NCBI GenBank assembly: GCA_040006915.1
Contig: JBDTWD010000001.1
Span: 34,229 to 98,228, forward strand
DNA length: 64,000 nucleotides
Direction of reading: 5' to 3'
Source: Candidatus Woesebacteria bacterium
GTDB lineage: Bacteria; Patescibacteriota; Microgenomatia; UBA1400; UBA12028
Below are positions 5,821-64,000 of the stretch, piece after piece. How positions within the stretch are numbered: position 1 is the first letter of the stretch; the number at the start of each line of letters is the position of its first letter. The notes beneath the pieces were generated by a model, which worked only from the letters and a program-made list of their open reading frames with translations, was not told the origin of the DNA and did not search any database. Both the position numbers and the translations under genes were made by a program.

Positions 5821-5832
5821 AAACACTCTTTT

Positions 5833-34694: not shown

Positions 34695-37600
34695 TCACTC
34701 GCGATTTGCAAGATCATCTCCCTCAAGAATTCGAAGGGCTTTTCGTAAACGAGTATCGACTTGCTCTGTACTCATGTTTAGGTACTCTGCGACACGTTCA
34801 ATTTGATACACACCGAACGTATATCCAAATCCAAAAAAGAGAGAAACAACTTCCTGCGTGTGGGCATCGAATTGATGTTTGTTTTGCTCAAACAAAGAAC
34901 TAATGTGCTGCGGATTCAGACGGGGGAAGTATCGAAGGCGGTCGATAAGATTCTCATTTGTATCTGCTTCTTTCATCGGAAGAATATTCCATAGTTTGAT
35001 ACGCGCTTCATATAAATGGCTGACAACCTCGAGTTCGGTAATTCCAAGTTCATGAGCAATCATTTCATTTGTTAATTGGATATAGAGGTTTCGATATGCG
35101 ACTCGAGCAGTCATTCTGTTTAATGTAAAGATTGCTTCGACCAATGGCTCAGTTAATTGTTCATTTCGTCGATTTTCAAAATGAATCTTGTCATCATCTT
35201 TTCCATTTCTTAAGGCGTCGAGTTGTTCGTAAATGGGAGTCAGGGCAAATCTGATTTTATTAAGCGCTTTCTCTTCTACCTGTCTAATTCGTTCGCGGGA
35301 TACTTCATATTCTTCACCAATTTCTTCAAGCGTTTTTGTGTCATCATTCATGATGTGTTCGTTAAGGATGGTTTGTTCACGTTCAGTCAGATATTTTGTC
35401 AAAATTGGTGTAATTTGTTCATGAAGAAGTCGTTCATCGTATGACTCTGTTACTTCATGTTCGACACTGCGAAGCAGTGAAGGAACAAAATTATAAAGAC
35501 TTTCACCATCATCGTCCTCAAGTACGGAAGCGTCTAAAGATTGGATCGGGGCAGAACTGACAAGCATAGATTCTATTTCTTTGGCAGTGATTCCAACAAA
35601 TTGTTTGGGATAGCGCTTGAGCAGTTCCTCTGTTAATGCTTCAAAGCTTGGAGTCTCTCCAGTTTCTTGTAGAATTTGTGTCTGGACTTTCCGGATATTT
35701 GGCAACTTTTCAGACATATGAACTGGAATACGAATTGTTCTCCCTGTGTCGTGAACAGATCTTTGCATATACTGCCGAATCCAGAAGACTGCATAGGTTG
35801 AGAATTTCAATCCTCGTTCATGATCGTACAACTCGGCTGCACGTAGAAGTCCAAGATTTCCTTCTTGAATTAAGTCGAGAGAAGTAGTTCCGTGTCCGAC
35901 GTATCTACTTACATATTTAAGAACCAGTCGGTAATTTGAATTGACGAGTTTTTGATATGCCTCTTCACCAGCTGCAACAGTAGAAGCTAAGTGGCTCATT
36001 TCCGGAGGAATCTGCTCACCATAGGAAGAAAGAAGCGCGAGAGCCTCTGATCCTTCTTTCATTGTTTGTCCCAGATCGAGCTCATCTTCAAAAGTAAGAA
36101 GTGGGAATTGATGTACTTCATCTTCATATGCTTTCACAATAGAAATTGTGCTTTCGGAAAAATCGCTATCGTCGACGTCTCCATCTTCTGAAGTTCGTTG
36201 TTCAGCTCGTTTACGTGCTGCAAAATTTGCCTTGTTCATCCATACGGAGAGTTCTTGGTTATATCTCTCTTCAGCGTCTTCCTCTTCTGCACTGGCCATA
36301 CCGTACGATGATTCGATAAAATCAATATCATCTTCCCAGGGACGTTTTTTCTTTTTTGTATATTCGGAGGGCAGAGATTGTAATAATGTCGCTTGTGTCA
36401 GCGAGAAACGTAGAGGTTGATCACTTGTATCCTGTATGATCTCTTTGTAGAAGTCGGGTGGTTCAACAAAGTAGAGTCCATCAATAATACGATCAGAAGT
36501 TGAGAGCTCATTGTACATACGTGTGACAATGCGTTCGTCATAGGTTCCACGTGCGCGGTTAAGGATGTCTCCTGTGACAAACGGAACGTAAATCGTCACG
36601 TCTCGTGTTTGCCCATACCGATGGATACGGTCAACTGCTTGTATATATTTTGATACCGTGTTGGGAGAAACAAATAAGATAACTTCCGTCGCATTGTTCT
36701 CAGGAGAGCATAAGGTGATTGACTCCCCTGCGGTTTGATAGTTTCCAATGATAACGTCCAAACTCTTCTCATCTGAGAATGGGAGTTTAAATCGATCCTG
36801 CTTTACGGTTCGATCACTTGGGTCCACTGTGCCATCAAGAAGCCCTATACGAGAAATTCCTTGATCTTTAAGGAAATGGGCAATGTGTGACGTACTCATC
36901 ATTGAGGTATAGCGATCTTCCCCGTGAACAAAAGGAGTAAAGATGACTACCTTCTTCTTGGCTTGTACCAGATCTTTGACTGTATCGGTCAGCCAGGTAT
37001 ATTTTACTTGGTTTTCAAGGGCGAGCGTCGCGTAAAAGTATGCAAATGGATTATCCTTACAGCGTTCTCGCAGTGATGCTTCAATACGTAAAAATTCCTC
37101 TTGATCTGCTTCACTTAAACTTGAGAGAGACAAGGGAATATATCGTGTATGCTTTTCGGGAAGATTTGAAACCTCTTTTTTACGACGACGCAACATAATC
37201 CCACGTAAGGCAGCATGGGCCTCTTCTTCGCTATGAAGGAGCTGTTCGATTGCATCTTTGGTAAAGATATGAGGAGCCGCTAAGTGAGCCAAAATGAGTG
37301 GTTCTTTGGCAGACTTTACATACGGCGTTGCTGTTGCGAGCATGACACGCATTTCTGGATGCTCGCTGATAAAACGGTATAATCCCTTGGTTCGTTGTGC
37401 GGTTATAGATGTATTTTCTGGATCAGCGGTCGATTCAGTTAAAGTAAGATCTTTGGTACGAATATTATGTGCTTCATCAATAATACAAACATCAAATGGA
37501 TGTTTGGAGAGGATGCGCTGCTGAAAAAGAGAATTACGAAATACATCATAATTCACCAGAAGGATGCGTTTACTCTTTCCCTCTCGTTCGAGTGCTTTTT

Positions 37601-39131
37601 TTAAAGCAAAAAGGCGTTCAGTCAAGCTTGCATTTGAGTCAAGTTTTAAATACGGACGACTTGGAACAGGCGGAGCATTTACGTTAATTGACTCGACTCG
37701 ACTAAGATCAATCCACTGTTTTATTTGTTCTTCCCACACATTGAGTGGTGTCTTTCCGGCCACGACAAGAATTGTTCCTGCTGCATTTTTAGTTGTGGCT
37801 TGTTGTTCGATCCTATTAAGAGCTGCTAAAAGCAACATGAGTGTTTTTCCAGTTCCCGGCTCGTCCGCTAAAATTCCGGTTTCCTGCATGAGTTTGGCAA
37901 TTCCTTCGACTTGATGCAGAAGAACATGAGGGAGTAGGTCTTCGTCATCAGAGTTTTTGGGTGAAAAATAATCAATGTGCTGATACGCATCGGCGATTGT
38001 AAAAAAGTATGACCGCATGCGTGGAAGCAGTCGTTCTTCAATTACATGTATAAGCGCGGTTTTTCCCTCGGGAATTCGTTGTGTAATATACTCATGCAAA
38101 AATCGATCCATTGCCTCACCTGCATGTTCACGACTGCCACCTTTTTCAAAATATGTACTCCAAAAGATACTGGCACTTTTATATGTACAACTGATTGCAA
38201 TGGGAAGAAGGATATGCTCTTCCATTGCATCGATAAGATCCAAAACTTCTGTACTTGTTGCACTTTCTTTATACCAGGTAATAAATGTCAGCTGATCTCG
38301 AAAGATTTTTTCCAAAGTAAGATCTTCACTGGATGTCAGGATTTCTGGATTAAATAGTGTGAAGAGATGATCTTGAATATACGAAGGATTTTGTCCCTGC
38401 AATCCTAGCTTTTGGAGGAGAAAGAGAGAGAGCTGCAAGATGACAGCCTTCTGACGATCTCTGGGGACCAGCGGGAGATATTGAAGAAGCGCGTGGACCG
38501 GTTTTGCTTCTTCTTTTTCCAGATACAAAAGGAGTTCTTCTCGGGATCGTTCGTCGTCGATATTGGCAAACTGAGCAAAGTTTTTTGGAAATCGTTTGAG
38601 TAGTCGCGTTTGTACCTCCGATGGTGCACGTTCATACAGAAGTCGATCAACTGCAGTAAATATATCATCAAAACTAATACTTGGATTCTGTTGTCGCTTC
38701 TCATAGTAGACGACAGAAGTAAGTTGTCCATACCAATCTGAATATTTTCCGGTTCGGTTTGCAGTTTTCGTCTGTGGGTCGGCAAATGTAAAAAACTTAT
38801 GAATCTCTTTTGGATTGGGAGTATATTGCAGACTAATATCAGCTGACAATTGCGACCAAAAGGAAGCATCATTCAGTACTTCTCGTGGATCACCTGTGTT
38901 TGTCAGTACCTCAGATTGTAGTTGTGAAGCGAGATGATATGTCCGTAGTGCCTCAATTGCCTGAGAGATTTTGCTTCCATATCGCGTCATGAGATCGCGA
39001 AGCAGGCCATGATCCCGAAACCACTGATAACTGAGCTCCTCGGGGCTTGGAATATGTTCTGAGGATGTCAATCCAAGTGCATCCGAGAAACGTTGTTCAA
39101 ACGACAGAGGCGATGTTTCACTATTTGTCAT
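34695..39131 (-). CDS. SNF2-family (RapA/Rad54-like) helicase ATPase fused to a complete sigma-70 factor (regions 1.2, 2, 3, 4) plus two further region-4-like HTHs. 1478 aa.
   Basis: Helicase motif I [15 protein letters not shown], motif II DEAH box [11 protein letters not shown], motif [17 protein letters not shown]. Sigma region 2 [40 protein letters not shown] and region 3 [16 protein letters not shown]. Region 4 [27 protein letters not shown]. Extra HTHs [28 protein letters not shown] and [20 protein letters not shown]. Confidence 0.8.
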   Translation of the reverse strand: [1478 protein letters not shown]

Positions 39132-42565: not shown

Positions 42566-45475
42566 TTAGAATTTTTTTACGATGACGTCTGTAAATCGAT
42601 TGAGCATTTTTGAGAAATCAGTTATATGAATTTTTCCTTTATACGTTTTTAAGAGAGACTCTTGAATTACTTGCTTGATTATCTTTATGAATTCCTCTCG
42701 TTTTGAAGAGTCTTGCCAGTTTTTATCTAACAGTGAAGATAGTTGCTGAGTCAGACTTTTGGAGATAAAAAGTAACTCATCATCATCAGGGTTCAAACTA
42801 TATTCTTGCAAAAGTCGATACATTCCCATTTCTTGCAGAGTAAGCCCTAGATGTTTCGCTTCTTCGCTCTTGCTTTTCAAATCATTGAGCAAGTCAAAGT
42901 ATCTCTTAATCCGCTCTGAGAGGTCTATTTGTTGCTTTTCAAATTCATCACGGATAGAGAGTAATCGTAGACTAAATTTTTCGAATGACGGATCCGAATC
43001 AATTTGCATTTGAATCTCGTGTTTGATTATTTTCTCTAGTTGCAGTGCTTTTTCCTCTTCATCATCACTGTGAAGCCTATTGAGAACGTAGATATCATTG
43101 ACCGTTAATTCTTTAAAATTGCGGGTAATCCCTTCGTAATCAATTTCTTCCTGAATGATTTTTTTTACCTTCTCCCCATACTCGGCGAGCATTGCGTGAT
43201 TATCATCTTCATCTTGATATGTTTTCTTGAATGCCAAATAAAAACTCGTAATCCATTCAAATTGACGTAGGTATGTGGAGAGGAATGGATCTGGAGACAA
43301 TATTTCGAATAGTAATTTTAATTTTCCGTATTTTTCAACAAAATAGTTCTGTTTTCGCTCATTTTCAGTAAAAATTTTGAGTGCACGACGTAAGTTATCC
43401 ATTGAAGGATCTTCAATATTGATGCCAGTAAACAGTTCCATGATTTCACTTAGAATTTGGATAAACTGTTCTTTAAGTTGATTGATATTGATGAGCGCTG
43501 AGTCGACAATGCTCTCATCAAAATCGAGCGCATCATAGAGGTTTTTTGTAATTCCGTAATAGTCGATAATTTTGCCTGCACCCTTATTTGGATACACGCG
43601 ATTAGTGCGTGCGATTGCTTGGAGTAGATTATGATCTCGTAGTGGCTTATCTAGATACATGACCTGCTCGATCGGTGCATCAAATCCAGTCAGTAACATA
43701 TCACACACCAATAAAAATTGAAGAGGATTCTTTGGATCTTTAAATCGAGTGATGAGTTGTTCTCGCTCTTGCTTGTTTGTGTTGTAGACTTTTAAATCAT
43801 CGGATTCATCATTTGGATCTCCTGGAGAATATATGACTGCAGAGAATTCAGGAGATATCAGTCGATCAAAAATTACTTTATACTTTGCAGTCGCTTCTCG
43901 ATCAAAACAAACAACTTGTGCCTTGAATCCATTCGGAGCGACATACAGTTTAAAGTGTTCGATAATATCCTGTGCGACAGACTCCATACGTTTCGTCAGT
44001 TTTACTAAAGCGGCTTTTTTTCCAAATTTCTTTGAAAGCGCTTCTTTTTGACTATCGGTGAGATCAGTTGTCATCTCGTCAAATTGCTGATCGACTTTCT
44101 CTTCATTAATTGAAAATTTAGAAAGTCTGGCTTCATATGTGACAGGAAGTGTTGCTCCATCATCGATGGCCTCTTGGATTGAATAATAATCTAAGTAACG
44201 TTCGCCATCTTCCCCAAAGTTTCGGTGTGTATTGAGCGTGAGTTTATCGATTGGGGTTCCAGTGAACCCAAATAAAAATGCCTTGTGTAATGATGTTCGT
44301 AAATTGATTGCACTGATTCCTTCGTTATCTCGATGTGCCTCGTCTGAGAGGACGATAATATTCTCATTTGTATTTTCGACATTTGGTCCGAGCTCACTGA
44401 ATTTCTGGATCGTTGAGATAAAGATTCCTCGCTCCGAATTTTGAATCTTCTCTTCTAGATCTTTGCGAGATGTGACCCGTGTCACATTCTCGCCACCACA
44501 ATTCATGAAGGTATCAAATATTTGATCATCCAGGTCGATTCGATCAACAAGGATAAAAACTTTGGGATTGTGAAGCAAAGTATCAAATCGAAGTTTCCAT
44601 GCAGTGAAAAACATAGTCAAACTTTTCCCCGATCCTTGCGTGTGCCAAACGAGTCCGCGCTTTTTCTCTCCCTGTTTCACTCGCTCGATAATTTTATTTG
44701 TTGCTCGGAATTGCTGATACCTGGCGATCTTTTTTATTCGACCATCAGTCGTTTTTTCAAACACTATAAAATTAGAGATAATATCCAGTAGAGTCTCTTT
44801 GGTAAGGAGGGCTGCTATCGACATTTCTACATTTCCACCATGAAGAGTTTCTAGATCCTCGTCTTTCCATTGCAAGAAATGCTGGAGTGGTGAGTACGTC
44901 GCACCATACACTGTTTGAATACCGTCTGTTGCTATACTGAAGCAGTTTGGCCAAAAGAGCCGATGCGCATTCTTCTCGTAGCGTTTGAGCTGTCCGACGG
45001 CCTTGGAGTAGTCCACGAGAGTACTTGCAGTCGGACTTTTTGCTTCGATATCGATAAGAGGGATTCCATTGACGAAGATCATGATATCCGGACGGATATT
45101 TTCTAAATTACCTTCAAAGTAAAACTGATTCGTGACTACAAATTGATTGTTCTCTGGATTCCGCAAATCAATAACTTTGTAGTCTCTCATCTTGCCACTC
45201 ACGGGATCTTTTAGATTAACGCCAGATCTATAGAGTCTCAGGAAGTCTTCGTTTGAGTCGATCTTCTTCACCTCTCGGAGTACACTTTGTGCCTCATCTT
45301 CAGAGATTTCATTGATTCGTTGTATTGCTACTAGGAGATGGGAAGAGATCAGAAATTCATTCTCAAACTCTCGAAGCTTGGAAAAAATTTCAGGCCTGAT
45401 GTACTCATATCCAAGTGTGGCTGATATGAATTTAATGATGTGATTCTCGACGGTGTATTGTTCGTTAAATTTCAT
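42566..45475 (-). CDS. hsdR: Type I restriction enzyme R subunit (HsdR).
   Basis: N-terminal nuclease region, helicase motif I TQGSGKSLTM and DEAH box LSDEAHR. The 969-aa size is typical of HsdR. Confidence 0.9.
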   Translation of the reverse strand: MKFNEQYTVENHIIKFISATLGYEYIRPEIFSKLREFENEFLISSHLLVAIQRINEISEDEAQSVLREVKKIDSNEDFLRLYRSGVNLKDPVSGKMRDYKVIDLRNPENNQFVVTNQFYFEGNLENIRPDIMIFVNGIPLIDIEAKSPTASTLVDYSKAVGQLKRYEKNAHRLFWPNCFSIATDGIQTVYGATYSPLQHFLQWKDEDLETLHGGNVEMSIAALLTKETLLDIISNFIVFEKTTDGRIKKIARYQQFRATNKIIERVKQGEKKRGLVWHTQGSGKSLTMFFTAWKLRFDTLLHNPKVFILVDRIDLDDQIFDTFMNCGGENVTRVTSRKDLEEKIQNSERGIFISTIQKFSELGPNVENTNENIIVLSDEAHRDNEGISAINLRTSLHKAFLFGFTGTPIDKLTLNTHRNFGEDGERYLDYYSIQEAIDDGATLPVTYEARLSKFSINEEKVDQQFDEMTTDLTDSQKEALSKKFGKKAALVKLTKRMESVAQDIIEHFKLYVAPNGFKAQVVCFDREATAKYKVIFDRLISPEFSAVIYSPGDPNDESDDLKVYNTNKQEREQLITRFKDPKNPLQFLLVCDMLLTGFDAPIEQVMYLDKPLRDHNLLQAIARTNRVYPNKGAGKIIDYYGITKNLYDALDFDESIVDSALININQLKEQFIQILSEIMELFTGINIEDPSMDNLRRALKIFTENERKQNYFVEKYGKLKLLFEILSPDPFLSTYLRQFEWITSFYLAFKKTYQDEDDNHAMLAEYGEKVKKIIQEEIDYEGITRNFKELTVNDIYVLNRLHSDDEEEKALQLEKIIKHEIQMQIDSDPSFEKFSLRLLSIRDEFEKQQIDLSERIKRYFDLLNDLKSKSEEAKHLGLTLQEMGMYRLLQEYSLNPDDDELLFISKSLTQQLSSLLDKNWQDSSKREEFIKIIKQVIQESLLKTYKGKIHITDFSKMLNRFTDVIVKKF

Positions 45476-45477
45476 AA

Positions 45478-46557
45478 TTATGCAAAGAATCTTTCCATCC
45501 CTCCCTCGATCATAAAATTAGTATATCCCTGGTTTGGAAAATACATATCTGTGATTTTTATTTGATCCACAACTCTAAATCTTTTAACATAATCCTGCGC
45601 TGATAATCCACCATTCGATACGATAGTAAGCTTTACATTGTCATGTAGATGCTCCTTCAACAAAGATAGTAAGTACTCGTCTTGCGCTCTCCAACCTATG
45701 ACGAGAATTCGATCAGTTTCCTTTATTTGTTCAATCAAACTATCGATATGTGATTTAGGACAAATAAAATTCCCTTTTGTTCCGATAGGTATTGCGATTG
45801 CTGGTAAATAGTACAGCCATTGTCCTTCACGAAAACCATTTTCTTTGTGCTCACGATAGGCTTCGTTTAAGCTAAAAGAATCAATTGCCCTGTAGTTGAA
45901 TCTTTTGATTACAATGGGAAAAACTTCGCGCTCTCTGTAGTCATCACTTCGAATCTCTGTATCAGACATGAAATATTCATAGACATCTCTTTTTAGTGAG
46001 TCGATTTTTGGAATATACCTCCAATTATGGGCGCCATGAATCTTAATAACTTTTATGGGTCCTGAAATATAGTCATCAATGTTGTTTCCTAAATTTATAT
46101 TGCTAATATTTTTCTCGAATAGAGTGTCATAGTTGAAATTCACGACACATGCATTTCCACCGCGGTTGTTTATTTCATTAATCAGATGAAGATGATTGTT
46201 TGTATGTCTGAAATGATAAAAAGATACTTTATTTAGAAGTTCAGCTAAATAAAACCTTAAAGCCATTACTTGAGTTCTCGTGTTGTCTGGATAGTCTTGT
46301 TGAATCTGTGATAAATATTTTTCAAAATCGAAACTATTCTTTTGGTTTTTTACCAGATTATTGATTGTGGCAGCTAGTGGTTTGACATGTTCATAATTCC
46401 CTATTATTCTGCCAAATTTAGCCACATCAAATAGTTGATTTGTAAGAGGAGGTTGCCAGTCTTTCAACTCAAAAATGTCGTTATGACCTTCGTAGTCGGC
46501 GAGATTTTGAAAGTCATGTGAAGCGCCAGCACCAAGAATGATGAGTGGATGTGCCAT
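45478..46557 (-). CDS. SIR2-like (SIR2_2 family) NAD-binding/NADase domain protein, embedded between hsdS and hsdR.
   Basis: The N-terminal IILGAGAS glycine motif, VVNFNYDTLFE (SIR2_2 NYD motif) and IKIHGAHNW (catalytic His) match defence-associated SIR2 domains. Start and stop are coupled with hsdS and hsdR (1 to 2 nt). Confidence 0.7.
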   Translation of the reverse strand: MAHPLIILGAGASHDFQNLADYEGHNDIFELKDWQPPLTNQLFDVAKFGRIIGNYEHVKPLAATINNLVKNQKNSFDFEKYLSQIQQDYPDNTRTQVMALRFYLAELLNKVSFYHFRHTNNHLHLINEINNRGGNACVVNFNYDTLFEKNISNINLGNNIDDYISGPIKVIKIHGAHNWRYIPKIDSLKRDVYEYFMSDTEIRSDDYREREVFPIVIKRFNYRAIDSFSLNEAYREHKENGFREGQWLYYLPAIAIPIGTKGNFICPKSHIDSLIEQIKETDRILVIGWRAQDEYLLSLLKEHLHDNVKLTIVSNGGLSAQDYVKRFRVVDQIKITDMYFPNQGYTNFMIEGGMERFFA

Positions 46558-46558
46558 A

Positions 46559-47734
46559 TTAATTTATTTGGATTTTTTGACTAAAAATATCAGACATTAG
46601 TTTTTTTTTCAGTTGATTTAAATAGTTCTTTGCATCAATTTCAGTTTTAATTTTTTCTGATAAATAGTGGATACTGGTGACTATTTTTTTTTGTGTCCCG
46701 AGACTTTTTGGAATACGTATTTCAAAAGTGCGAATTTTTTCCATGGATAGACTCGATTGAGCTGTAGTACTAATGTTTTTTTTTATTTCATAATCAATCA
46801 GTGGGCTCATAAAGTATGTAAACAGATATTCTGGTAAAACTTTGTTTAAGCAGGATATTTTACAAACATTTGGACCCAAGTGAAACTTATTATTCTCTTC
46901 AATCAGTGCAACCGGACCGATAGTGCCAACGTATGAAAAAATCAAATCACCTTTAATCAATTGAGACCTTGGGAGTGCGTGAGAAACATTCAGAGGTATA
47001 GTTTTTGTATCGTTCAAATCTAGCGAGCCTTTCTTTATGTTTTTACCTCTCAATACTGTTATCTCTCCTTTGTCTCTATAGCTATTAAAATATTTTGTGA
47101 ATTCGTACCCAGCTAGTTTTGTTATATTAGCGACGTCTCCCAATCTTACTAACTCCCATTGCTCCGTGAGCTCTACTCCCTTCTCTCTTGTGCCATTCAA
47201 ATTTTCCGGTAATAGCACCTTCATTATTCCTTTTTTTAAGATCTCTGTTTTTTGAGTGATTTGATCGTTTTTTTCAATTTCTTCATCAACAGTTGATAAT
47301 ATTTTAGAAATTTTCTTTTGAATGATCTTAGGAGGTAGCGTGGCGACAATTTCATATACATCTTCTCTATTTAGGCCTGGAATTCCAGTTCCCCTATTCA
47401 TTTTTTCTAACCCAAGTGTTTGAAGTAAGTAATAAGTCCATCGAAGATCTACGCCTTCATGATCGATAACATAATAGGTTGTATCTATTGGCCAAAAAGG
47501 TGAATCAGAAAATTCAATTTTCCCTATGCTTCCTTTTCTACCAACAACTAAACCTTTGGAGTTGATAAGCGCTATGTCATTATGTCCAACGATGCCGTTT
47601 GACCCATAGACAGGGATGTTTCCTTTCTTCCTTTTGTGTGTAGGAAGATTCTTCCCATACTCTAGTTTCAAAAATTCCCCAGTCTTAACTTTTTTCCAGG
47701 GTAGACTTGTATTTGGCATATTATTTCTTCTCAT
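46559..47734 (-). CDS. hsdS: Type I restriction-modification specificity subunit (HsdS).
   Basis: Two-TRD architecture with conserved central and C-terminal helical repeats, ~390 aa, located inside the hsd operon. Confidence 0.75.
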   Translation of the reverse strand: MRRNNMPNTSLPWKKVKTGEFLKLEYGKNLPTHKRKKGNIPVYGSNGIVGHNDIALINSKGLVVGRKGSIGKIEFSDSPFWPIDTTYYVIDHEGVDLRWTYYLLQTLGLEKMNRGTGIPGLNREDVYEIVATLPPKIIQKKISKILSTVDEEIEKNDQITQKTEILKKGIMKVLLPENLNGTREKGVELTEQWELVRLGDVANITKLAGYEFTKYFNSYRDKGEITVLRGKNIKKGSLDLNDTKTIPLNVSHALPRSQLIKGDLIFSYVGTIGPVALIEENNKFHLGPNVCKISCLNKVLPEYLFTYFMSPLIDYEIKKNISTTAQSSLSMEKIRTFEIRIPKSLGTQKKIVTSIHYLSEKIKTEIDAKNYLNQLKKKLMSDIFSQKIQIN

Positions 47735-47905
47735 TTACGACCATATTGAGCTAGTGCTCGCAATGGTTTTTGGTTGATTTATTAGATTTCCTTTAATTTA
47801 GCTTCGCACTCTAGACTCAATTGTTCGATCATATCGGTGACTTCACCGATATGATATTTTGCCTATCTGTCGGTCCTTTTACTCGAGACGGAGAGTTGTG
47901 CAGGG

Positions 47906-47933
47906 TTGACAATAGGCAGTTTCAAGCTATAAT
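47906..47933 (+). promoter_or_regulatory. Perfect-consensus sigma-70 promoter (TTGACA, 16-nt spacer, TATAAT) on the plus strand, antisense to the hsd operon.
   Basis: TTGACA at 47906-47911, TATAAT at 47928-47933. Confidence 0.5.
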
Positions 47934-47940
47934 TAAATCT

Positions 47941-47993
47941 GATCGGAAACGATCAAATTCGTTGGCTTAAGGGCTCCTCGCGGAGTCCTTTTT
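47941..47993 (+). ncRNA. Putative ~50-nt small RNA, antisense to the NYN-hsdS intergenic mRNA. It has a GNRA hairpin (GATCG-GAAA-CGATC) and a terminator hairpin (GGGCTCC-tcgc-GGAGTCC) followed by TTTTT.
   Basis: Bounded by the consensus promoter (TSS ~47941) and an intrinsic terminator at 47971-47993. It ends 6 nt before the NYN gene stop codon on the opposite strand. Confidence 0.3.
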
Positions 47994-47998
47994 GCTAT

Positions 47999-48751
47999 CT
48001 ATAGCTGTTTGCTAATATCTGGCTGAATCTCCTTTGCGTTGCAGATGAAATTCCGAATTTTTTGAATATCAAAGATCTGCGCTTTTGTTGCTCCCAGCTC
48101 AATTGAGATCCGACGGGCCGTGGCAAAAATGACAACTTTCTTTTTATCTTTTAGTAACTGGGAGACGGGATCGGCGAAATCACTATCTCCTGACCAAAGG
48201 ATAAAGTTATCTGTACCTCCAGCATCATAGTCATGGAGCATATCTCTACCGAGCTCGACATCAAAATTACATTTTCGATGCTCAATGTATGTGATACCTG
48301 AAAGGTTTAAATCCTTAAGCTTATCGTTAAGAAATTCTATGGTTTCAAGGGTGAAACGTCGAAGAAGCGGTTTTTTGATGAAGTTTGCCAAGATAGCGGG
48401 TGAATTATTTGGTATACCAGAAACATCTATGGGTAGACGCATGATCTTTACAGCTTTTGTTGTAACTGCATAGTTCATTTTAGTCAAATCGTTTATGAAA
48501 TGAATAGAATCAGGGTTAGTTTCTAATGTTCCCTGATACAGTCGAACAACTGAAATTGCTGAGAATGAGTCACAGAATTGTTTTAACCTTTTCGGGTCAA
48601 TGTGCCAACTGAGTTTTTCAGACCAATGCAACATATTCGCCCAGTCTAAATATATGTTCGTTGGTTTATCAAAAATTTTCTCAAGTTCTTTTATACGATC
48701 TGGATAAATTTGTGCTAGCTTTTTAAGTCGTTCTGTTTTTGCTTTAAACAT
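47999..48751 (-). CDS. NYN-domain (LabA/PIN-like) predicted ribonuclease, embedded between hsdM and hsdS.
   Basis: IYLDWANM near the N-terminus and FILWSGDSDFADP match NYN/PF01936 conserved Asp motifs. The start overlaps the hsdM stop by 8 nt. Confidence 0.65.
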   Translation of the reverse strand: MFKAKTERLKKLAQIYPDRIKELEKIFDKPTNIYLDWANMLHWSEKLSWHIDPKRLKQFCDSFSAISVVRLYQGTLETNPDSIHFINDLTKMNYAVTTKAVKIMRLPIDVSGIPNNSPAILANFIKKPLLRRFTLETIEFLNDKLKDLNLSGITYIEHRKCNFDVELGRDMLHDYDAGGTDNFILWSGDSDFADPVSQLLKDKKKVVIFATARRISIELGATKAQIFDIQKIRNFICNAKEIQPDISKQL

Positions 48752-50447
48752 ATCCCAACTCCTTTATAAAGCTAGCTACTTTGGCATGAATTTGTTCGCG
48801 TTGTGTTTCCAGCTCTTGGAGCTCTTTCCACACTGCAGATACATCAATTTCCTCTACCTCATCGGTCGAATCAATGTAGCGTTTTATATTGAGGTTATAC
48901 TCATTCTCGGCGATTTCTTTCACCTCGATGACACGTGCGTATTTCTCTACATCTTGATAGGCGTCATACGCACTGACAATCTTCTCGATATCTTGATTGC
49001 GGAGTGTGTTCTGATTTTTCCCTTCCGCAAAATCGCGCTCCGCATCGATCATGAGAATTTTGTTTTTCTTGTGATCAGGTTTATTTTTATTTAATATCCA
49101 GACAGCCACAGGGATTCCGGTTCCAAAGAAGAGCTTCGGTGGGAGAGATACGATTGTATCGATGAGGTCATTTCTTATGATTTGTTCGCGAATCCGTCCT
49201 TCACTGCCGCCACGGAATAGCACTCCATGAGGAAGGATTATTCCAGCCCGACCATTCATATTCATGGATTTGATGATGTGGAGCACAAAGGCAAAGTCGG
49301 CATTCTTTTGTGGAGGAAGCTCATATTCACTTGTCCTGCCATACTTATCATTGCGAAAGATCTCAAATTCCCAATCTTTAATCGAGTAAGGGGGATTTGC
49401 AACACAAATATCCCATGTTTGTAAGTTTCCTGAGTCGGTCAAGAACTGAGGATTTGCTAATGTGTCACCACGACGAATATCAGCACTATCGAGGCCATGC
49501 AAAAACATATTTATCTTTGCGATGGCAAAAGTACTGATATTAATTTCTTGTCCATAGAGATAGAGAGTTCGGGCGATCTGTTCTCCTGCTTTTTTTTTCA
49601 GATAAGCATATGCTTCGAGCAGAAACCCACCTGATCCCACCGTCGGATCATAGATGTGATCCTTCTGATGAGGCTTAAGGATTCCAATGATTGCTCTTTC
49701 TACCTCTCGAGGCGAATAAAATTCGCCGCCTTTTTTTCCTGCATCTGCTGCAAATTGACTAATGAGATACTCATATGCATCTCCAAGCAAATCTGAGCTG
49801 ATATATGCACTCCCGAAGTTGTACTGCGAGAAATGATTGATCAGTCGCTGTAGTGTTTCATTTGGAAAACGATCTTTATTTGCAAAGTCGAGATCGGCAA
49901 ATATTTTATCGAGTTTGGGACTATTGACGTTTGTCAGCTTATCGAAGATTTCATTGAGTTTCCCCCCAATATCTGAGGGAGTGTTTTCTAGTGTCGTCCA
50001 CTTACAGTCGGCAGGGACCTGGAATCTGTGATTATAGTCAGCACGAGCAAGGTCTTTATCATGATACTCGTTGAGTACTACATCATATTCTTCATCCCAG
50101 ACATCGCTAATTCGTTTGTAAAAAAGAAGACCGAAGATATATTTTTTGTAGTCACTGCTATCAATTTTCCCTCGCAGAATGTCTGCACTTTTCCATAGCA
50201 TCTGTTTAAGCTCGGACAAGGTCATGGTGTGCGCACTGATCTGTGATAACAATCCACCAACGTCCGAATCAATCATTTTGGCGATTTCCTTCTGACGATA
50301 ACGACGATCCTGTCTGGGTCCAACTCGGAGTGGTACCAGTGTTCCATTTCTCTCCCAGTTACGTAGGGTGTCAGCATGAATACCAAAAAGTTTGGCTACT
50401 TGTCCGATACTTAGAAGTGCTTTTTCTCTAGTTGCTTGTTCTGACAT
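48744..50447 (-). CDS. hsdM: Type I restriction-modification N6-adenine DNA methyltransferase subunit (HsdM), with an N-terminal HTH-like extension.
   Basis: NPPY motif VANPPYSIKDW. AdoMet motif I DPTVGSGGFL. HsdM N-terminal domain. Confidence 0.9.
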   Translation of the reverse strand: MSEQATREKALLSIGQVAKLFGIHADTLRNWERNGTLVPLRVGPRQDRRYRQKEIAKMIDSDVGGLLSQISAHTMTLSELKQMLWKSADILRGKIDSSDYKKYIFGLLFYKRISDVWDEEYDVVLNEYHDKDLARADYNHRFQVPADCKWTTLENTPSDIGGKLNEIFDKLTNVNSPKLDKIFADLDFANKDRFPNETLQRLINHFSQYNFGSAYISSDLLGDAYEYLISQFAADAGKKGGEFYSPREVERAIIGILKPHQKDHIYDPTVGSGGFLLEAYAYLKKKAGEQIARTLYLYGQEINISTFAIAKINMFLHGLDSADIRRGDTLANPQFLTDSGNLQTWDICVANPPYSIKDWEFEIFRNDKYGRTSEYELPPQKNADFAFVLHIIKSMNMNGRAGIILPHGVLFRGGSEGRIREQIIRNDLIDTIVSLPPKLFFGTGIPVAVWILNKNKPDHKKNKILMIDAERDFAEGKNQNTLRNQDIEKIVSAYDAYQDVEKYARVIEVKEIAENEYNLNIKRYIDSTDEVEEIDVSAVWKELQELETQREQIHAKVASFIKELGYV

Positions 50448-59253: not shown

Positions 59254-59715
59254 TTAAATAAGCAAAACGTCTATGTTCATTCTTTTTAATATTTCTATTC
59301 CTTTTCCTATATGTGAAGGTTTCTTAGAAATCACGCGTTTCATTCTAGCTTGATGAATAGCTATTGCACATTCTTTGCAAGGCGGGATGGAGACATACAT
59401 ACTCGCACCTGTAAGATCAATATCATGAGTGGAAGCATTTCTAATTGCTATAAACTCAGCGTGCAAACACTTACATTCTCGTCGTTTTTCTCCCGAAGCC
59501 AATATACCTAAGAATCTCTGTTTACATCTTACACAGCCACCTTCACCACATTTCAAATCAGAGAAGGTATCATTATGACCAGATGACAATATTTCTTCGT
59601 TTAGACAAATAACTGCACCGACTTTTTTACTTAAACAAGTGCTTTTTTTGGATTCATCTTCAGCAATTTTCAAAAATTTACTGTCGCTTGTAAAAACCCG
59701 TTGTTTAATTGACAC
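59254..59715 (-). CDS. dCMP (deoxycytidylate) deaminase, zinc-dependent CDA family.
   Basis: Zinc motifs CLHAEFIAI (H/CxE) and PCKECA (PCxxC). It sits directly downstream of the hydroxymethylase gene with no gap. Confidence 0.8.
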   Translation of the reverse strand: MSIKQRVFTSDSKFLKIAEDESKKSTCLSKKVGAVICLNEEILSSGHNDTFSDLKCGEGGCVRCKQRFLGILASGEKRRECKCLHAEFIAIRNASTHDIDLTGASMYVSIPPCKECAIAIHQARMKRVISKKPSHIGKGIEILKRMNIDVLLI

Positions 59716-60630
59716 TTACGATTCTTTCTTTCCAATTAAGGTGTTTTGGCAAAAATTACAGAAATTACTCTTTAATGGGAATAGATCTTTATTAGTATTA
59801 TTTCTAATAATGCTCTCATTCAATTGTAGCTGATCAATCTCGCTTAAGTCATCTATTGGTGGCATAGTGATAATCTTATTTTCATTGGGACTTCTTATTA
59901 TTGACTCGACCATTTCAAAATTCCTTTTATAGATATGACTACTTGTAGAAAAATGGTGATACATGCCAAGTTGCAATTGTGGATAATGTGCCCGCAATTC
60001 GATAAGCATCTTTTCTTGAAAGAGAGTGAAAGCAAAAACGTCATTTGCAAATCCAAGAATCAAATCATTGCTTCGCATATTCACAGAAAGATAGAGCCTT
60101 TCGTTCCGGATAAAAAATTGTAAAAATGCGGTACAAAGAAAGTCTTTAGTAGGTTTTAGCATATCTCGTGGAGAGATGAGCATAATGACTGCTCTTCGCG
60201 ATTCTTTATCTATAACGAGTTCTTTTATCACGAAATCCCACTGATTGACCGAATGTTCTGTATTATTTCCAAAAATTCTATATCCATATGCTGAGTTAAC
60301 GGTTTTCCCATCGTCGCTCACTTTTTTCCAAAATTTAGAATAAAACGATATTTCTTCCAAGCTGTTAGATCCTCGCTCATACCACAGCCATTCGGCGATA
60401 CCGTACCTAAGGGAGAAACCACGATATTTATTTGTGATAATTCTTTGACTTGGATCAGATATTGTTACGTGTGTGCAAATAATCTCTCTAGTATCTTCAC
60501 CTCTTGGCGAGACAATAAAATCTGGATTCTCGTAGGCATCCTTCAATATCTCGAGGAATGCCTCGTTCGTAGTCGTTGCAAAGTAAGATCTGTTTTTATT
60601 CATAACCAAGTAAAGCATTATACCTCTCAA
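59716..60630 (-). CDS. Thymidylate-synthase-family pyrimidine hydroxymethylase, closest to T4 gp42 dCMP hydroxymethylase.
   Basis: ThyA-family core: ESRRAVIMLISPRDM (the SRR...S.W motif), catalytic Cys in DFLCTAFLQFF, and NMRSNDLILGFAND. Asp sits at the position of ThyA Asn177, 8 residues after the RSxD Asp, as in dCMP hydroxymethylases. Confidence 0.7.
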   Translation of the reverse strand: MRGIMLYLVMNKNRSYFATTTNEAFLEILKDAYENPDFIVSPRGEDTREIICTHVTISDPSQRIITNKYRGFSLRYGIAEWLWYERGSNSLEEISFYSKFWKKVSDDGKTVNSAYGYRIFGNNTEHSVNQWDFVIKELVIDKESRRAVIMLISPRDMLKPTKDFLCTAFLQFFIRNERLYLSVNMRSNDLILGFANDVFAFTLFQEKMLIELRAHYPQLQLGMYHHFSTSSHIYKRNFEMVESIIRSPNENKIITMPPIDDLSEIDQLQLNESIIRNNTNKDLFPLKSNFCNFCQNTLIGKKES

Positions 60631-61738
60631 TAGTGGTATTTAAACTTTGAGGTAAGTTTGGCAACCTGTTATCTTCATCATACCTGTTTTGTACAATTAG
60701 CTGAGGAGCCTCTATACCAAGCCAATCAAATATTTTTTGTAATGCGTCTGTAGGCTGTCTCAATAAATCCTCAAAGGGTATGTGAACCATTTGTACATGA
60801 TTGCTCTGTTCCATAATTGCTGAAATATGTCTCCCCCAAAATATTGCCGGATCATCTGTAGAATCACTCTCTGTGAAGTATTTAAAACCATTTGTCGCTA
60901 TTGATTGTGAGGCCGCATATCCATTGCGGTGTATATGAATAAAATATGCACTATTGTTGAAAATGTGTTGAAGTTGTGGAATTCGAAAACTATTAAAAGG
61001 AGATTTAGATAAAAAGAAAGGTGATTCAAAAGCTTGAGCATGCTCTGAGGCAGCCATTACAAGTGATTCAGGATTCTTGATAACAGGCTCACTCAGCAGA
61101 TACTGATGCGTTCGAAGCTGTGAGTAAGAGGTTATATATCTGTTAAAGATGTGTTCTGATTCATCGGGAATTACCGTATCGGTTAACAACCTTAGTTTTT
61201 TTGAATCTTGGGTTAAAATTTCTGATCCAGAACTTTGAAAATGTTTCCGCCCATCTAAATGTGACAAATTATACGATGACCATACATGATGAGAGAAATT
61301 AGTAAAATACGAAAAGCAGCGTTGAAATGATAACAAATTGAACAAGTGGGTGGTTCCAGACCGAGGACTTCCTACAATAAAAATATTTTTCTCAGGGGCT
61401 GTTGGTGGGCTAATTCTGCCTTTGTGTTCAAGTCTAGCGTTCATTTGTCCCTGCAAGTCAATTCTTTCTCGTTCAGCAATTAAAGATATATCAAGATAGC
61501 TGCTTCCATGTTGAGCCATTAAATCAAGATATTTGACTATTTCCGCGTGTGTTTCTTTAGCAACTCCTCCTGACAATGACCTTCCTTCTAATTCTTCGAT
61601 TAAGACATGTTCTTCAAGATTTTCACTAAAGCGATAAATTCTTCTTTTCGCTAGTGCAATATCCGCCCTGAGTTGACGAATATTCTCGGGGACAAGCGCT
61701 TGTTCAGATGTGGGAGTAAAACGAATAATTTCACTCAT
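60596..61738 (-). CDS. Sulfotransferase-family protein (P-loop-like PAPS-binding fold) with a ~110-aa N-terminal extension.
   Basis: 5'-PSB-like motif IFIVGSPRSGTTHL. YFIHIHRNGYAASQS resembles the sulfotransferase RDPRD...S motif. Confidence 0.55.
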   Translation of the reverse strand: MSEIIRFTPTSEQALVPENIRQLRADIALAKRRIYRFSENLEEHVLIEELEGRSLSGGVAKETHAEIVKYLDLMAQHGSSYLDISLIAERERIDLQGQMNARLEHKGRISPPTAPEKNIFIVGSPRSGTTHLFNLLSFQRCFSYFTNFSHHVWSSYNLSHLDGRKHFQSSGSEILTQDSKKLRLLTDTVIPDESEHIFNRYITSYSQLRTHQYLLSEPVIKNPESLVMAASEHAQAFESPFFLSKSPFNSFRIPQLQHIFNNSAYFIHIHRNGYAASQSIATNGFKYFTESDSTDDPAIFWGRHISAIMEQSNHVQMVHIPFEDLLRQPTDALQKIFDWLGIEAPQLIVQNRYDEDNRLPNLPQSLNTTIERYNALLGYE

Positions 61739-61741
61739 ATA

Positions 61742-62524
61742 TCAGATGATTTTACTCTCTTGTAATAATTTACTGGTTAAACGCAAAAGATAATTTGCAT
61801 CAGTCTCCGAAGTGTTCGGATTGAGTCGTATGGCACTTATGCAAGAGTTCGCTACAACAATTGGTAAAACAGCTTCATATTCGCTTAGCTGGCCTAGTAA
61901 TGTTGCGTTACGAACACCTGAGAGGAACTTCTTCAATAACGGATAGATCTCTATATTTGGATCGGTGTATTGAAACTTGATCAACTGAGCAAAATCAGCC
62001 AGAATGAATGAGGGAACAACATAGTCGAAATCTATCATTGATACATTATCCTCATGAAAAACCCAGTTTTCTGGTTTAGCGTCTTTGAATAATGCGGGGA
62101 AAAATAACGATTCGAGTGCCCTTAAATTTTTTTCATACTGAGGCATACATACATCGGCTCCAGTTTTTCTGCTAAAGAACAAAACATTCTCTCGTACTTT
62201 GTTAATGTAGTCACCACGTGTGTTCCCCTTTGTCGAGTCCAATGGAAATAATTTCTGAAACGAAATGAGTTGGTTAATACAGACATTTAACTCACCGTTC
62301 GATAAATATCGTTTGACTAAACCTGAGATGCCTTTCATCCTTATACTATTTTGCTCACCATTCACTTCAAGAATCGATGGCGTACGTATCCCTTGTGACG
62401 AACAAGCATTGAGATAATATGCTTCACACTGAAATCTATCTTTGCTCGCATATTTTTTGATAATAACTAAATACTCTTTGTCCTTTTGTACAGTCACAGT
62501 ATTTACATTGCTTTGAACTGTCAT
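61742..62524 (-). CDS. APH/choline-kinase-like (protein-kinase fold) phosphotransferase.
   Basis: Beta-3 Lys region EYLVIIKKY, catalytic loop DAKPENWVF (HGD-x-x-x-x-N-like) and metal-binding IDFD. Confidence 0.55.
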   Translation of the reverse strand: MTVQSNVNTVTVQKDKEYLVIIKKYASKDRFQCEAYYLNACSSQGIRTPSILEVNGEQNSIRMKGISGLVKRYLSNGELNVCINQLISFQKLFPLDSTKGNTRGDYINKVRENVLFFSRKTGADVCMPQYEKNLRALESLFFPALFKDAKPENWVFHEDNVSMIDFDYVVPSFILADFAQLIKFQYTDPNIEIYPLLKKFLSGVRNATLLGQLSEYEAVLPIVVANSCISAIRLNPNTSETDANYLLRLTSKLLQESKII

Positions 62525-62526
62525 AT

Positions 62527-63570
62527 TTATCTCAATTCCTGGAATGCATGTAAAATTGAATCAATCTGTCTCTCCTGAGAAAAAATTTGAGCAATGGAAA
62601 ACAACTCAAGCAACAAGTCCGTAATCTTTTTACCAGAACGAGTAAGAATCCAATCTATTCCTTCAAGAACATCTTTGTCGTCTGCAACAATTAGCTCTGC
62701 AGGGAACATTTGGGTAACGTCTCCATATTCTTTTGGTACGAACGGAATACAAAGACCCCAAAGTGATTCAAATAATCGTTGTGTCATCTGTCCGCTTTTA
62801 TAGTATCTTTCAGGAGCAATTAGAACTGTCGTTAGAGATTGCTCGTATAACCCGTGTACTCTTTCGAAACCAATTCTTCCATGAAAATCAGCATTAAGGA
62901 ATTGATTTGGATCCCACTTTCCATAAATTTGTGCCGGTGGAGTCAATAATTTCGATGGCCTGTCATAGTATTTATTGAAACTTTCATCTCTTTCATATTG
63001 ATTACCAATATATATTAACTTAATCGATCTGGTCATTGTCTGATAATCGTTTATTCGTTCTACCGCCTGACCTGTTCTACGTGCATCCATTGGGAAAAGC
63101 AGCTGCCTTCTCCCTTCCCGTGGGTTTAAAGAAGGTTCGAAAACAGTTACCCTGTTTTGAGATAAAATTTCGGCATCAACAGGTAATTTTTGATCCTTAT
63201 CCCAAATGAGAATCGGTACATCTTGCGATACATAATACTCTAATATCTCTGTTTGACGATCAAGATCTGGCATATAAAGCTTGTCTGTTTTTTCTATTCC
63301 GACGTTCCTGCCAGGGATCGGCCACCTATATTCTAAAAATACGAAGTCAAGATCGGGAAACTTGTCACTAAATGACAAGCTCGATTTACTAAAATCTTCG
63401 CCAGCCTCCTCCAGATCTCGATTTTTCTGCAACATTCTTACTGATGCTCCTTGTGCAATTAATCCGTCAATGAGTGTGAATCTATGACTACGACCACCAT
63501 CAGGCGTATTCTCTATTCCGTTCCCTAAAAATCCCCAACAACTATATCCAACTTCAATTTTTGATGACAT
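62527..63570 (-). CDS. Glycosyltransferase resembling phage T4 DNA beta-glucosyltransferase (BGT-like, GT-B fold).
   Basis: 347 aa (T4 BGT is 351 aa). KLIYIGNQYERDESFNKYY resembles BGT's LDVIYGGSFRSGQRESKM, and RLFESLWG resembles RVWETMAS. The gene sits in an operon with a hydroxymethylase. Confidence 0.45.
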   Translation of the reverse strand: MSSKIEVGYSCWGFLGNGIENTPDGGRSHRFTLIDGLIAQGASVRMLQKNRDLEEAGEDFSKSSLSFSDKFPDLDFVFLEYRWPIPGRNVGIEKTDKLYMPDLDRQTEILEYYVSQDVPILIWDKDQKLPVDAEILSQNRVTVFEPSLNPREGRRQLLFPMDARRTGQAVERINDYQTMTRSIKLIYIGNQYERDESFNKYYDRPSKLLTPPAQIYGKWDPNQFLNADFHGRIGFERVHGLYEQSLTTVLIAPERYYKSGQMTQRLFESLWGLCIPFVPKEYGDVTQMFPAELIVADDKDVLEGIDWILTRSGKKITDLLLELFSIAQIFSQERQIDSILHAFQELR

Positions 63571-64000
63571 ATAGGACTTCTATATATTTATCTATAAACA
63601 TTTTTTTTCTGGAAATTTCTTTCAGCCAAGCTAATTTATACTCTTCATTTTTGTCAGATGACAAGACACCTGACAAGTTGTATCTTGGCGTGGATAAAAC
63701 ATAATCTAAAACATTTTTAGGAGATTCAACAAAAACTTGAGTTTCCATCAAATATGAATCTATAGAGTATTCTCCTTCCGGAAAACTTTTTCTTAAGATC
63801 GTTTCACCATTCTCATAACAAAAATGCTCTTCATCACGTGTTGAAGAAATGCTTTTCCCAGTCGTTTGAAAATTAAATAGTCTGTACGAAATTTCTTTAA
63901 AAATCCTTTCCATCTCTGGGAAAGTGGCCTTTGATTTCGTTGTGATGAAAATGACATGCTTTTTATTTAAATTCTGTTTTAATCCTTTAAAAAAAAGCTT
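63554..64000 (-). CDS. Hypothetical protein, C-terminal part. The ORF stays open to the window end.
   Basis: The reading frame is open from 63913 to 64000 with no stop. It overlaps the start of the glycosyltransferase gene by 17 nt. Confidence 0.35.
   Translation of the reverse strand, partial: KLFFKGLKQNLNKKHVIFITTKSKATFPEMERIFKEISYRLFNFQTTGKSISSTRDEEHFCYENGETILRKSFPEGEYSIDSYLMETQVFVESPKNVLDYVLSTPRYNLSGVLSSDKNEEYKLAWLKEISRKKMFIDKYIEVLYVIKN

Follow-up and report, generated by a model that had tools for sequence, protein, structure and literature searches.

What does a homologue of thymidylate synthase (ThyA) make when the residue that reads the pyrimidine is that of a cytosine enzyme, and when it is encoded in a bacterium beside genes for sugar, carbamoyl, methyl, phosphate and sulfate transfer? 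We addressed this question for a gene on the minus strand of a 64,000-nucleotide stretch of a Candidatus Woesebacteria metagenome-assembled genome (MAG; contig JBDTWD010000001.1, positions 34,229 to 98,228), hereafter the window. A first-pass annotation had noted an Asp at the position equivalent to Asn177 of E. coli ThyA and had predicted a deoxycytidylate (dCMP) hydroxymethylase, not a canonical thymidylate synthase. Asp at this position would suit any of four activities: dCMP methylase, dCMP hydroxymethylase, CMP hydroxymethylase and 5-hydroxy-dCMP synthase. From the residues that separate these classes, we predict that the gene probably encodes a folate-dependent deoxycytidylate C5-hydroxymethylase working like gp42 of phage T4. 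The first-pass annotation missed the bacterial host, the antibiotic-biosynthesis enzyme MilA as the closest solved relative, and the large conserved operon around the gene. The gene is the seventh of a tightly packed minus-strand operon of eight, which run in the order P-loop kinase-like protein, NodU/TobZ-type carbamoyltransferase, S-adenosylmethionine (SAM) methyltransferase, glycosyltransferase resembling the T4 beta-glucosyltransferase (BGT), aminoglycoside phosphotransferase (APH)-like kinase, sulfotransferase, hydroxymethylase and dCMP deaminase.

The predicted active site is that of T4 gp42

The gene had been placed at 59716-60630, which is the open reading frame in the program's list and begins with TTG. 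Its strand and frame hold. Almost certainly, however, translation begins at the ATG at 60603 and not at 60630, because this codon overlaps the stop of the upstream sulfotransferase gene as ATGAATAA (60596-60603) and because an identical 295-aa protein is present at NCBI, on a 251-kb contig, as 'MAG: thymidylate synthase [Candidatus Woesebacteria bacterium]'. The gene thus spans 59716..60603 (minus strand) and encodes a 295-aa ThyA homologue of the dCMP hydroxymethylase type (Pfam PF00303, E 1.8e-22).

The cytosine-specificity residue is Asp188 (codon 60040-60042, minus strand), the last residue of the motif NMRSNDLILGFAND (residues 175-188; 60040..60081, minus strand), which also contains Arg177, Ser178 (S167 in E. 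coli ThyA), Asn179 and Asp180 (D169). In a column-for-column HMMER alignment, RSNDLILGFAND corresponds to RSNDVVFGFRND of T4 dCMP hydroxymethylase (Asp179) and to RANDAFRGAVSD of MilA (Asp186), and a MAFFT alignment with E. coli ThyA places Asp188 on Asn177. The proposed Asp is therefore borne out against ThyA, T4 gp42 and MilA alike, and the T4 motif had been quoted correctly as GFRND. The catalytic Cys and the SRR motif, described as intact, could both be located in the translation. Within KDFLCTAF, the alignment identifies Asp154 (acidic, at L143) and the catalytic nucleophile Cys157 (C146; codon 60133-60135) in KDFLC (60133..60144, minus strand), and Arg136-Arg137 (R126', R127'; 60193..60198, minus strand) form the phosphate-binding pair within ESRRAV.

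At 15 of 15 active-site positions, the protein carries the residue of T4 gp42 (E58, W80, Y94, R126, R127, D143, C146, T147, R166, S167, N168, D169, D177, H207 and Y209 in E. coli numbering). The equivalents of the catalytic set, Glu71, Cys157, Arg177, His223 and Tyr225, were located on window codons, and the equivalent of Tyr94 is Tyr in the alignment. Published discriminators between the enzyme classes point the same way. MilA has Ala176 and Lys133' where T4 dCMP hydroxymethylase and ThyA have Ser and Arg, BcmA is likewise Ala/Lys, and a MilA A176S/K133R double mutant loses CMP activity and retains dCMP activity (PMC5175136). Unlike MilA, the window protein has Ser178 and Arg136 in its ribose pocket, the deoxyribose state. 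Leu143 of ThyA is changed to Asp or Glu in hydroxymethylases, whereas methyl-forming enzymes retain a bulky hydrophobic residue (PMC13326640); here the position is Asp154, the hydroxymethyl-type state. All validated 5-hydroxy-dCMP synthases carry D169N (PMC13326640), and the corresponding Asp180 is unchanged in every subfamily member and every cassette copy. In phage contigs with modified cytosine, 147 and 177 are the two most discriminating ThyA positions (PMC8670742); the window protein and T4 gp42 both have Thr at 147, where ThyA has His. All testable published sequence discriminators (177, 143, 167/126', 169 and 147) thus agree with a dCMP hydroxymethylase, and the original call, which remains a prediction, is supported by them.

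These residues are strongly conserved. Asp188, Asp154, Ser178, Arg136 and Cys157 are unchanged in 32 of 32 subfamily members. Asp188 is also kept in all 46 cassette-linked homologues from metagenomes, and its invariance in both sets indicates a fixed family trait as opposed to a sequencing accident or chance. The full R/D/S/D/D state is found in 44 of the 46 cassette hydroxymethylases, Gly occupies position 167 in two, and the Lys/Ala pair of MilA occurs in none.

The subfamily also has a helical C-terminal extension of about 50 residues (~245-295; 59716-59870, minus strand), which T4 gp42 lacks and MilA shares structurally. Within it, Glu263 and Arg267 are invariant and an F-C (FCxWCQ-like) motif is nearly so.

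Alternative activities of an Asp177 enzyme

MilA is the closest solved relative, and the preference between CMP and dCMP therefore needed testing. It is the best PDB match by sequence (E 1e-38, with T4 dCMP hydroxymethylase at E 1e-18) and by structure. Using an AlphaFold2 (AF2) model with a mean predicted confidence (pLDDT) of 95.5, Foldseek ranks MilA first, then T4 dCMP hydroxymethylase, then the dCMP hydroxylase of phage HY126, and only then thymidylate synthases; the TM score is 0.84 for MilA over ~290 columns, C-terminal extension included, and the T4 enzyme reaches a TMt of 0.79-0.81. A CMP 5-hydroxymethylase like MilA or BcmA would supply 5-hydroxymethyl-CMP or 5-hydroxymethylcytosine (5hmC) to a pathway of the nucleoside-antibiotic type. 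The operon does resemble a biosynthetic cluster with tailoring enzymes, and relatives occur in Streptomyces and Agrobacterium. Yet the Lys133'/Ala176 pair of MilA is replaced here by Arg136/Ser178, the combination with which the MilA double mutant lost its activity on CMP, and this Arg/Ser pair is the rule across the cassette copies (44/46, against 0/46 with Lys/Ala). Moreover, neither Pfam scans nor the precomputed Pfam annotation of the operon genes contain an N-glycosidase domain of the MilB/BcmB type, and the closest resemblance of the adjacent deaminase is to dCMP deaminases. A CMP hydroxymethylase is for these reasons unlikely, and a dCMP hydroxymethylase is the best-supported call because the substrate-determining residues are T4-like, although the scaffold is MilA-like. 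In a crude neighbour-joining tree without support values, the clade of the window protein groups with T4 gp42 and viral homologues, and a clade from high-GC cassettes lies elsewhere.

We regard as very unlikely a dCMP C5-methyltransferase making 5-methyl-dCMP, as proposed for enzymes of the Xanthomonas phage XP12 type and seen with ThyA N177D mutants. According to literature cited in PMC8670742, N177D alone suffices to turn ThyA into a dCMP methylase. However, methyl-formers keep a bulky hydrophobic residue where this protein has the acidic Asp154, and a methyl product would leave the glycosyltransferase, O-carbamoyltransferase, kinase and sulfotransferase of the operon without the hydroxyl acceptor that each of them requires. 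Still more improbable is a 5-hydroxy-dCMP synthase that depends on flavin, such as RB69 gp48, DLP3 gp80 or HY126 AfhB. These enzymes too are ThyA homologues and combine N177D with an acidic residue at 143, they are followed by glycosyltransferases, and AfhB structures appear at Foldseek ranks 10-11; the diagnostic D169N is nevertheless absent, and the retained, invariant Asp180 argues that the window protein is not one of them.

An ordinary, merely divergent thymidylate synthase is scarcely credible: the fold, the PF00303 match, the NCBI name and a neighbouring dCMP deaminase that would feed dUMP to such an enzyme speak for it, but Asp replaces Asn177 and Leu143 and Thr replaces His147, the NCBIfam ThyA equivalog score is 63.6 bits against a cut-off of 174.6 bits (other ThyA models do worse, all far below their cut-offs), cytosine-specific enzymes outrank every thymidylate synthase in sequence and structure searches, and tblastn onto the window finds the gene with T4 gp42 (E 2.5e-21) and not with E. 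coli ThyA (E<=10). By its sequence, then, the predicted enzyme joins the known group of cytosine C5-hydroxymethylases, and its public label of thymidylate synthase would be a misnomer.

The hydroxymethylase gene belongs to a conserved operon

The overlap of the hydroxymethylase start with the sulfotransferase stop, together with the GTG start of the deaminase gene, which abuts the hydroxymethylase stop (59715/59716), suggests translational coupling. The deaminase (153 aa; 59254..59715, minus strand) matches Pfam dCMP_cyt_deam_1 (2e-20) and the PHROG dCMP deaminase family (2.6e-31), and its best PDB match is T4 dCMP deaminase (1vq2, E 7.9e-11). Upstream of the hydroxymethylase, the sulfotransferase (380 aa; 60596..61738, minus strand) matches Pfam PF13469 (Sulfotransfer_3, 3e-22) and has, by eye, a GSPRSGTT loop for the sulfate donor 3'-phosphoadenosine 5'-phosphosulfate (PAPS).

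The next gene (61742..62524, minus strand) encodes a 260-aa small-molecule kinase of the APH/protein-kinase fold, assigned by a weak Pfam APH match and by a family profile that was built from fetched loci (a word-indexed homologue search returned only the query). In that profile K23, K147-D148-x4-N153 and D165 are invariant, which is the complete catalytic set of APH and eukaryotic-type protein kinases (ePK); the best PDB match is an APH-family protein, at a weak E of 6e-4. The N-lobe has a weak resemblance to the KEOPS kinase Bud32 (E 1e-4), and the operon carbamoyltransferase belongs to the Kae1/YrdC-related TobZ family, a Bud32/Kae1 parallel that may be coincidence.

The glycosyltransferase (347 aa; 62527..63570, minus strand) is a GT-B enzyme and, by family profile and AF2/Foldseek, a distant homologue of T4 DNA beta-glucosyltransferase. 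Its sequence alone has no Pfam match, and the sole significant PDB match of a profile of 36 relatives is T4 BGT (E 2e-7). R194, R265 and E268 are invariant in the family and align, by eye, with UDP-binding residues of T4 BGT, which we take to be Arg195, Arg269 and Glu272. Its AF2 model (pLDDT 95.3) retrieves T4 BGT as the first five PDB matches in Foldseek, narrowly ahead of other GT-B enzymes, and its best viral structural matches are for the most part phage proteins of uncharacterised function, a protein annotated as 'DNA beta-glucosyltransferase' standing at rank 8. What points to 5hmC in duplex DNA as a candidate acceptor is solely gene linkage in phage contigs. The isoelectric points (pI) are 5.1 for the window enzyme, 9.0 for T4 BGT and 5.1-8.5 for viral relatives, and charge or pI of the glycosyltransferase and the carbamoyltransferase is an uninformative proxy for DNA binding.

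A class-I SAM methyltransferase of 273 aa follows, of which the C-terminal ~149 codons lie in the window (63554..64000, minus strand), the frame being open to the window end. A Logan contig (L025) that is 100% identical to window positions 61782-64000 supplies the complete methyltransferase, the 573-aa carbamoyltransferase and the 222-aa P-loop protein. The carbamoyltransferase resembles the O-carbamoyltransferases TobZ, NovN and GdmN. Matches of the P-loop protein are all weak (PHROG thymidylate kinase, E 0.04-0.06; a phage thymidylate kinase (TMPK)-like family in hhalign, E 0.017 with a probability of 2.7%), and it has no PDB match. PADLOC returned no match to the cassette beyond a generic match to the deaminase, so assignment to a known anti-phage defence system is unsupported.

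A genome scan with an alignment as query recovered relatives, whereas one with the single protein returned none. The same operon is found in Saccharibacteria (685-kb contig), in Komeilibacteria (534-kb contig) and on an 819-kb JGI contig, and it occurs in rearranged form in Streptomyces and Agrobacterium. A metagenome scan with the glycosyltransferase profile yielded 80 loci, of which 26 have 4 kb or more of sequence to either side of the glycosyltransferase gene. Hydroxymethylase, carbamoyltransferase and glycosyltransferase occur together in every one of these fully flanked loci (26/26), accompanied by the APH-like kinase in 25, the methyltransferase in 24, the sulfotransferase in 10 and the deaminase in 4. 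One architecture, of low GC content (33-42%) and resembling the candidate phyla radiation (CPR), matches the operon of the window; the other, of 66-70% GC, has the gene order of the Streptomyces cluster and is probably actinobacterial. An operon of eight to ten genes is thus conserved across distant lineages, from low-GC CPR bacteria through high-GC contigs resembling the Streptomyces cluster to Agrobacterium. The link between a TobZ-type carbamoyltransferase, an Asp177 ThyA homologue and a dCMP deaminase recurs in L025 and in L004/L006/L001.

Viral relatives of the glycosyltransferase show a similar linkage. Sixteen IMG/VR viral contigs encode one, and 14 of them have a ThyA homologue with D177 (and D143, or E143 in one) at most 10 kb away. 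Two viral loci, L031 and L043, have the order TMPK-like P-loop kinase, glycosyltransferase, hydroxymethylase (followed by the deaminase in L031) and DNA polymerase, inside a replication module. The ThyA homologues of other loci depart from this pattern. In L028 (IMGVR_UViG_2818991273_000001), a 416-aa homologue at 5219-5854, ~4 kb from the glycosyltransferase, has the MilA-like, ribo-type Lys126/Ala167 and clusters with MilA in the crude tree. Those of L013 and L015-L021, from Clostridia/Ruminococcus/Oscillospiraceae MAGs, an unclassified bacterium and a Verrucomicrobiales MAG, pair Asp143 with Asn177, the signature of a dUMP hydroxymethylase (5-hm-dUMP).

A proposed pathway and the fate of its product

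In the reaction that we propose, Cys157 would, by homology, attack C6 of dCMP, and Asp188, in place of the Asn of ThyA, would read the N3/N4 face of cytosine. Arg136', Arg137', Arg177 and Ser178 would hold the 5'-phosphate, leaving no room for a 2'-OH beside Ser178. The methylene group of methylenetetrahydrofolate (CH2-THF) would be transferred to C5, and the exocyclic methylene would then be hydrated, not reduced, giving 5-hydroxymethyl-dCMP; hydration is expected because Asp154 replaces the hydrophobic Leu143 of ThyA. This synthesis would be the first committed step of the translationally coupled operon. The BGT-like glycosyltransferase would glycosylate the 5-hydroxymethyl group, and the linked genes suggest subsequent decoration of the adduct by carbamoyl, methyl, phosphate and sulfate groups. 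The deaminase would draw dCMP off to dUMP and so balance the pools, as does cd of T4. The first-pass annotation had offered both pool balancing and production of 5-hm-dUMP as possible roles for the deaminase, and pool balancing is the more conservative reading.

Several observations weigh against a T4-like dCMP hydroxymethylase at the head of such a pathway. The closest solved homologue by sequence and structure prefers CMP, belongs to antibiotic biosynthesis and also accepts dCMP. The rule that separates ribo- from deoxyribonucleotide enzymes is drawn from one mutational study and a five-sequence alignment, and the rule for position 143 is correlative only. Neither a dCTPase nor a recognisable dNMP kinase was seen in the operon, and the tailoring enzymes are of small-molecule type (a TobZ/NovN/GdmN-like carbamoyltransferase, an APH-like kinase and a UbiG/BioC-like methyltransferase). 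The Agrobacterium copy adjoins an ATP-binding cassette (ABC) exporter, and the high-GC cassette also encodes a histidine phosphatase and a further APH-like kinase. Finally, one cluster, at 8283-14699 of L045 (Haloactinomyces albus), has the carbamoyltransferase, glycosyltransferase, P-loop protein, methyltransferase, APH-like kinase, histidine phosphatase and second APH-like kinase with no ThyA homologue within 10 kb, and is the lone exception to the linkage.

Where the product goes is judged from both sets of evidence. A deoxy-type hydroxymethylase, the relationship to BGT, the phage modules and the experimental precedent for 5hmC carbamoylation all point toward DNA. Small-molecule-type tailoring, the phosphatase and extra kinase of the high-GC cassettes, the Agrobacterium exporter, the spread among actinomycete genomes in the manner of biosynthetic gene clusters, and the lack of a visible dCTPase or clear dNMP kinase point instead toward a soluble metabolite. 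We give a soluble deoxynucleotide or deoxynucleoside metabolite slightly short of an even chance and the cell's own DNA a serious but minority one, with the rest falling to some other destination. The fullest version of the DNA reading is more tentative, and on balance we doubt it: that ultra-small Patescibacteria (Woesebacteria, Saccharibacteria and Komeilibacteria) and, via the related cassette, soil actinobacteria use a T4-like, pre-replicative 5-hydroxymethyl-dCMP route to carry glycosylated and carbamoylated, methylated, phosphorylated or sulfated cytosine in their own chromosomal DNA.

The surrounding DNA is a bacterial chromosome

The window is part of a bacterial chromosome, that of a Candidatus Woesebacteria MAG. 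It encodes alanine racemase (alr), PolX, a P-type ATPase, a LytR-Cps2A-Psr protein, transporters of the major facilitator superfamily (MFS) and the ABC type, and type I restriction-modification, and the flank at 50-59 kb holds RDD, glyoxalase and thioredoxin genes and nothing phage-like. A megablast search of the window against phages gave no match and no tRNA gene was found in the window; with the chromosomal genes, this rules out a phage origin. Neither a second ThyA gene nor a ThyX gene was found within the window.

GC content is ~0.43-0.47 over the first 32 kb and drops to 0.36-0.38 at 56-64 kb, the part that holds the operon, a profile compatible with a horizontally acquired island. Two other loci stand out. 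A 1478-aa fusion at 34695-39131 (minus strand) joins an SNF2/helicase ATPase (~407-840) to apparently complete sigma-70 regions 1.2, 2, 3 and 4 (~999-1294), an unusual architecture. The type I restriction-modification locus at 42566-50447 (minus strand) comprises hsdR, an unknown 359-aa gene, hsdS, a gene for an NYN-domain protein and hsdM with an N-terminal MerR-type helix-turn-helix.

Significance of a cellular cassette

Hydroxymethylases of the dCMP type are known from phages, where DNA hypermodification starts with them. The cellular ThyA-type cytosine hydroxymethylases that we found in the literature are MilA and BcmA, both of the CMP type and both from antibiotic pathways. Full-text literature searches found no paper on the cassette, and the operon, widespread as it is, is apparently undescribed. 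Its partner genes recall both the b-gt/42 pair of T4 and the 5hmC carbamoyltransferase reported recently. Whichever destination proves right would be a novelty: a cellular genome with hypermodified cytosine, or a family of deoxycytidine-derived metabolites that are glycosylated and sulfated or carbamoylated. Should the product enter the cell's own DNA, this would be the first non-viral pyrimidine hypermodification of the thymidylate-synthase type, and, more speculatively, DNA-scavenging episymbionts might use it to tell their own DNA from imported DNA. Because cultured Streptomyces and Agrobacterium strains carry the cluster (Streptomyces sp. NBC_01571, GCA_026339875.1; Agrobacterium tumefaciens, GCA_009498535.1), the choice between DNA and metabolite is directly testable.

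Comparison with known systems

Among the phage enzymes, RB69 gp48 and HY126 AfhB share with the window protein the homology to ThyA, N177D and an acidic residue at 143, and they feed DNA glycosyltransferases; they differ in carrying D169N and in using flavin and O2, whereas the window protein keeps Asp at 169. Phage DNA-glycosylation modules resemble the cassette in placing a relative of the glycosyltransferase (25-34% identity) beside a D143/D177 ThyA homologue; six of the viral loci also have a dCMP deaminase close by. They differ in their tailoring genes, those for carbamoyl, methyl, kinase and sulfo functions being present in none of the viral loci.

A TobZ-type carbamoyltransferase that co-occurs with ThyA homologues and dCMP deaminases has been shown experimentally to act on 5hmC (PMC8670742). 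In the MetaGPA clusters from which it comes (eLife 2021, PMC8670742), Carbam_trans_N/C, an Asp177 Thymidylat_synt homologue, dCMP_cyt_deam_1 and MafB19-deam co-occur, much as in our operon; a glycosyltransferase, methyltransferase, APH-like kinase or sulfotransferase is not reported with them (PMC8670742). The validated enzyme (PMC8670742) and that of the operon share the TobZ-type architecture, an aliphatic residue in place of TobZ Trp408 and a Cys in place of Gly421. They differ in origin, the validated enzyme being from a phage contig, and in sequence, with 22-24% identity (E 1e-12 to 1e-15) and partial agreement at three published discriminating positions, so that orthology beyond the family level is unsupported.

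MilA (Streptomyces rimofaciens) and BcmA (PDB 5B6D/5JNH), the CMP 5-hydroxymethylases of mildiomycin and bacimethrin biosynthesis, resemble the window gene in being cellular genes within multi-gene biosynthetic clusters. MilA is 40% identical to the window protein over 223 aligned residues and shares with it the C-terminal extension and the Asp at both N177 and L143. The two enzymes are set apart by Lys133'/Ala176, against Arg/Ser here, and by their partner genes, a different set in which the N-glycosidase has no counterpart seen here.

T4 gp42 (PDB 1B5E/1B49/6A9A) agrees with the window protein at all 15 active-site positions, including Asp177, Asp143, Ser167, Arg126' and Asp169, at 28% overall identity. 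It lacks the C-terminal extension, and it is encoded by a phage, not by a bacterial chromosome. In T4, b-gt adjoins gene 42, and the cassette likewise pairs a BGT-type glycosyltransferase and a dCMP deaminase homologue with the hydroxymethylase; to these it adds carbamoyl-, methyl- and sulfotransferases and an APH-like kinase, with no dCTPase seen in the cassette. As far as can be told, it is new to find a predicted dCMP-type hydroxymethylase as a fixed member of a conserved operon in cells, and that operon is in part like T4 and in part like a biosynthetic cluster.

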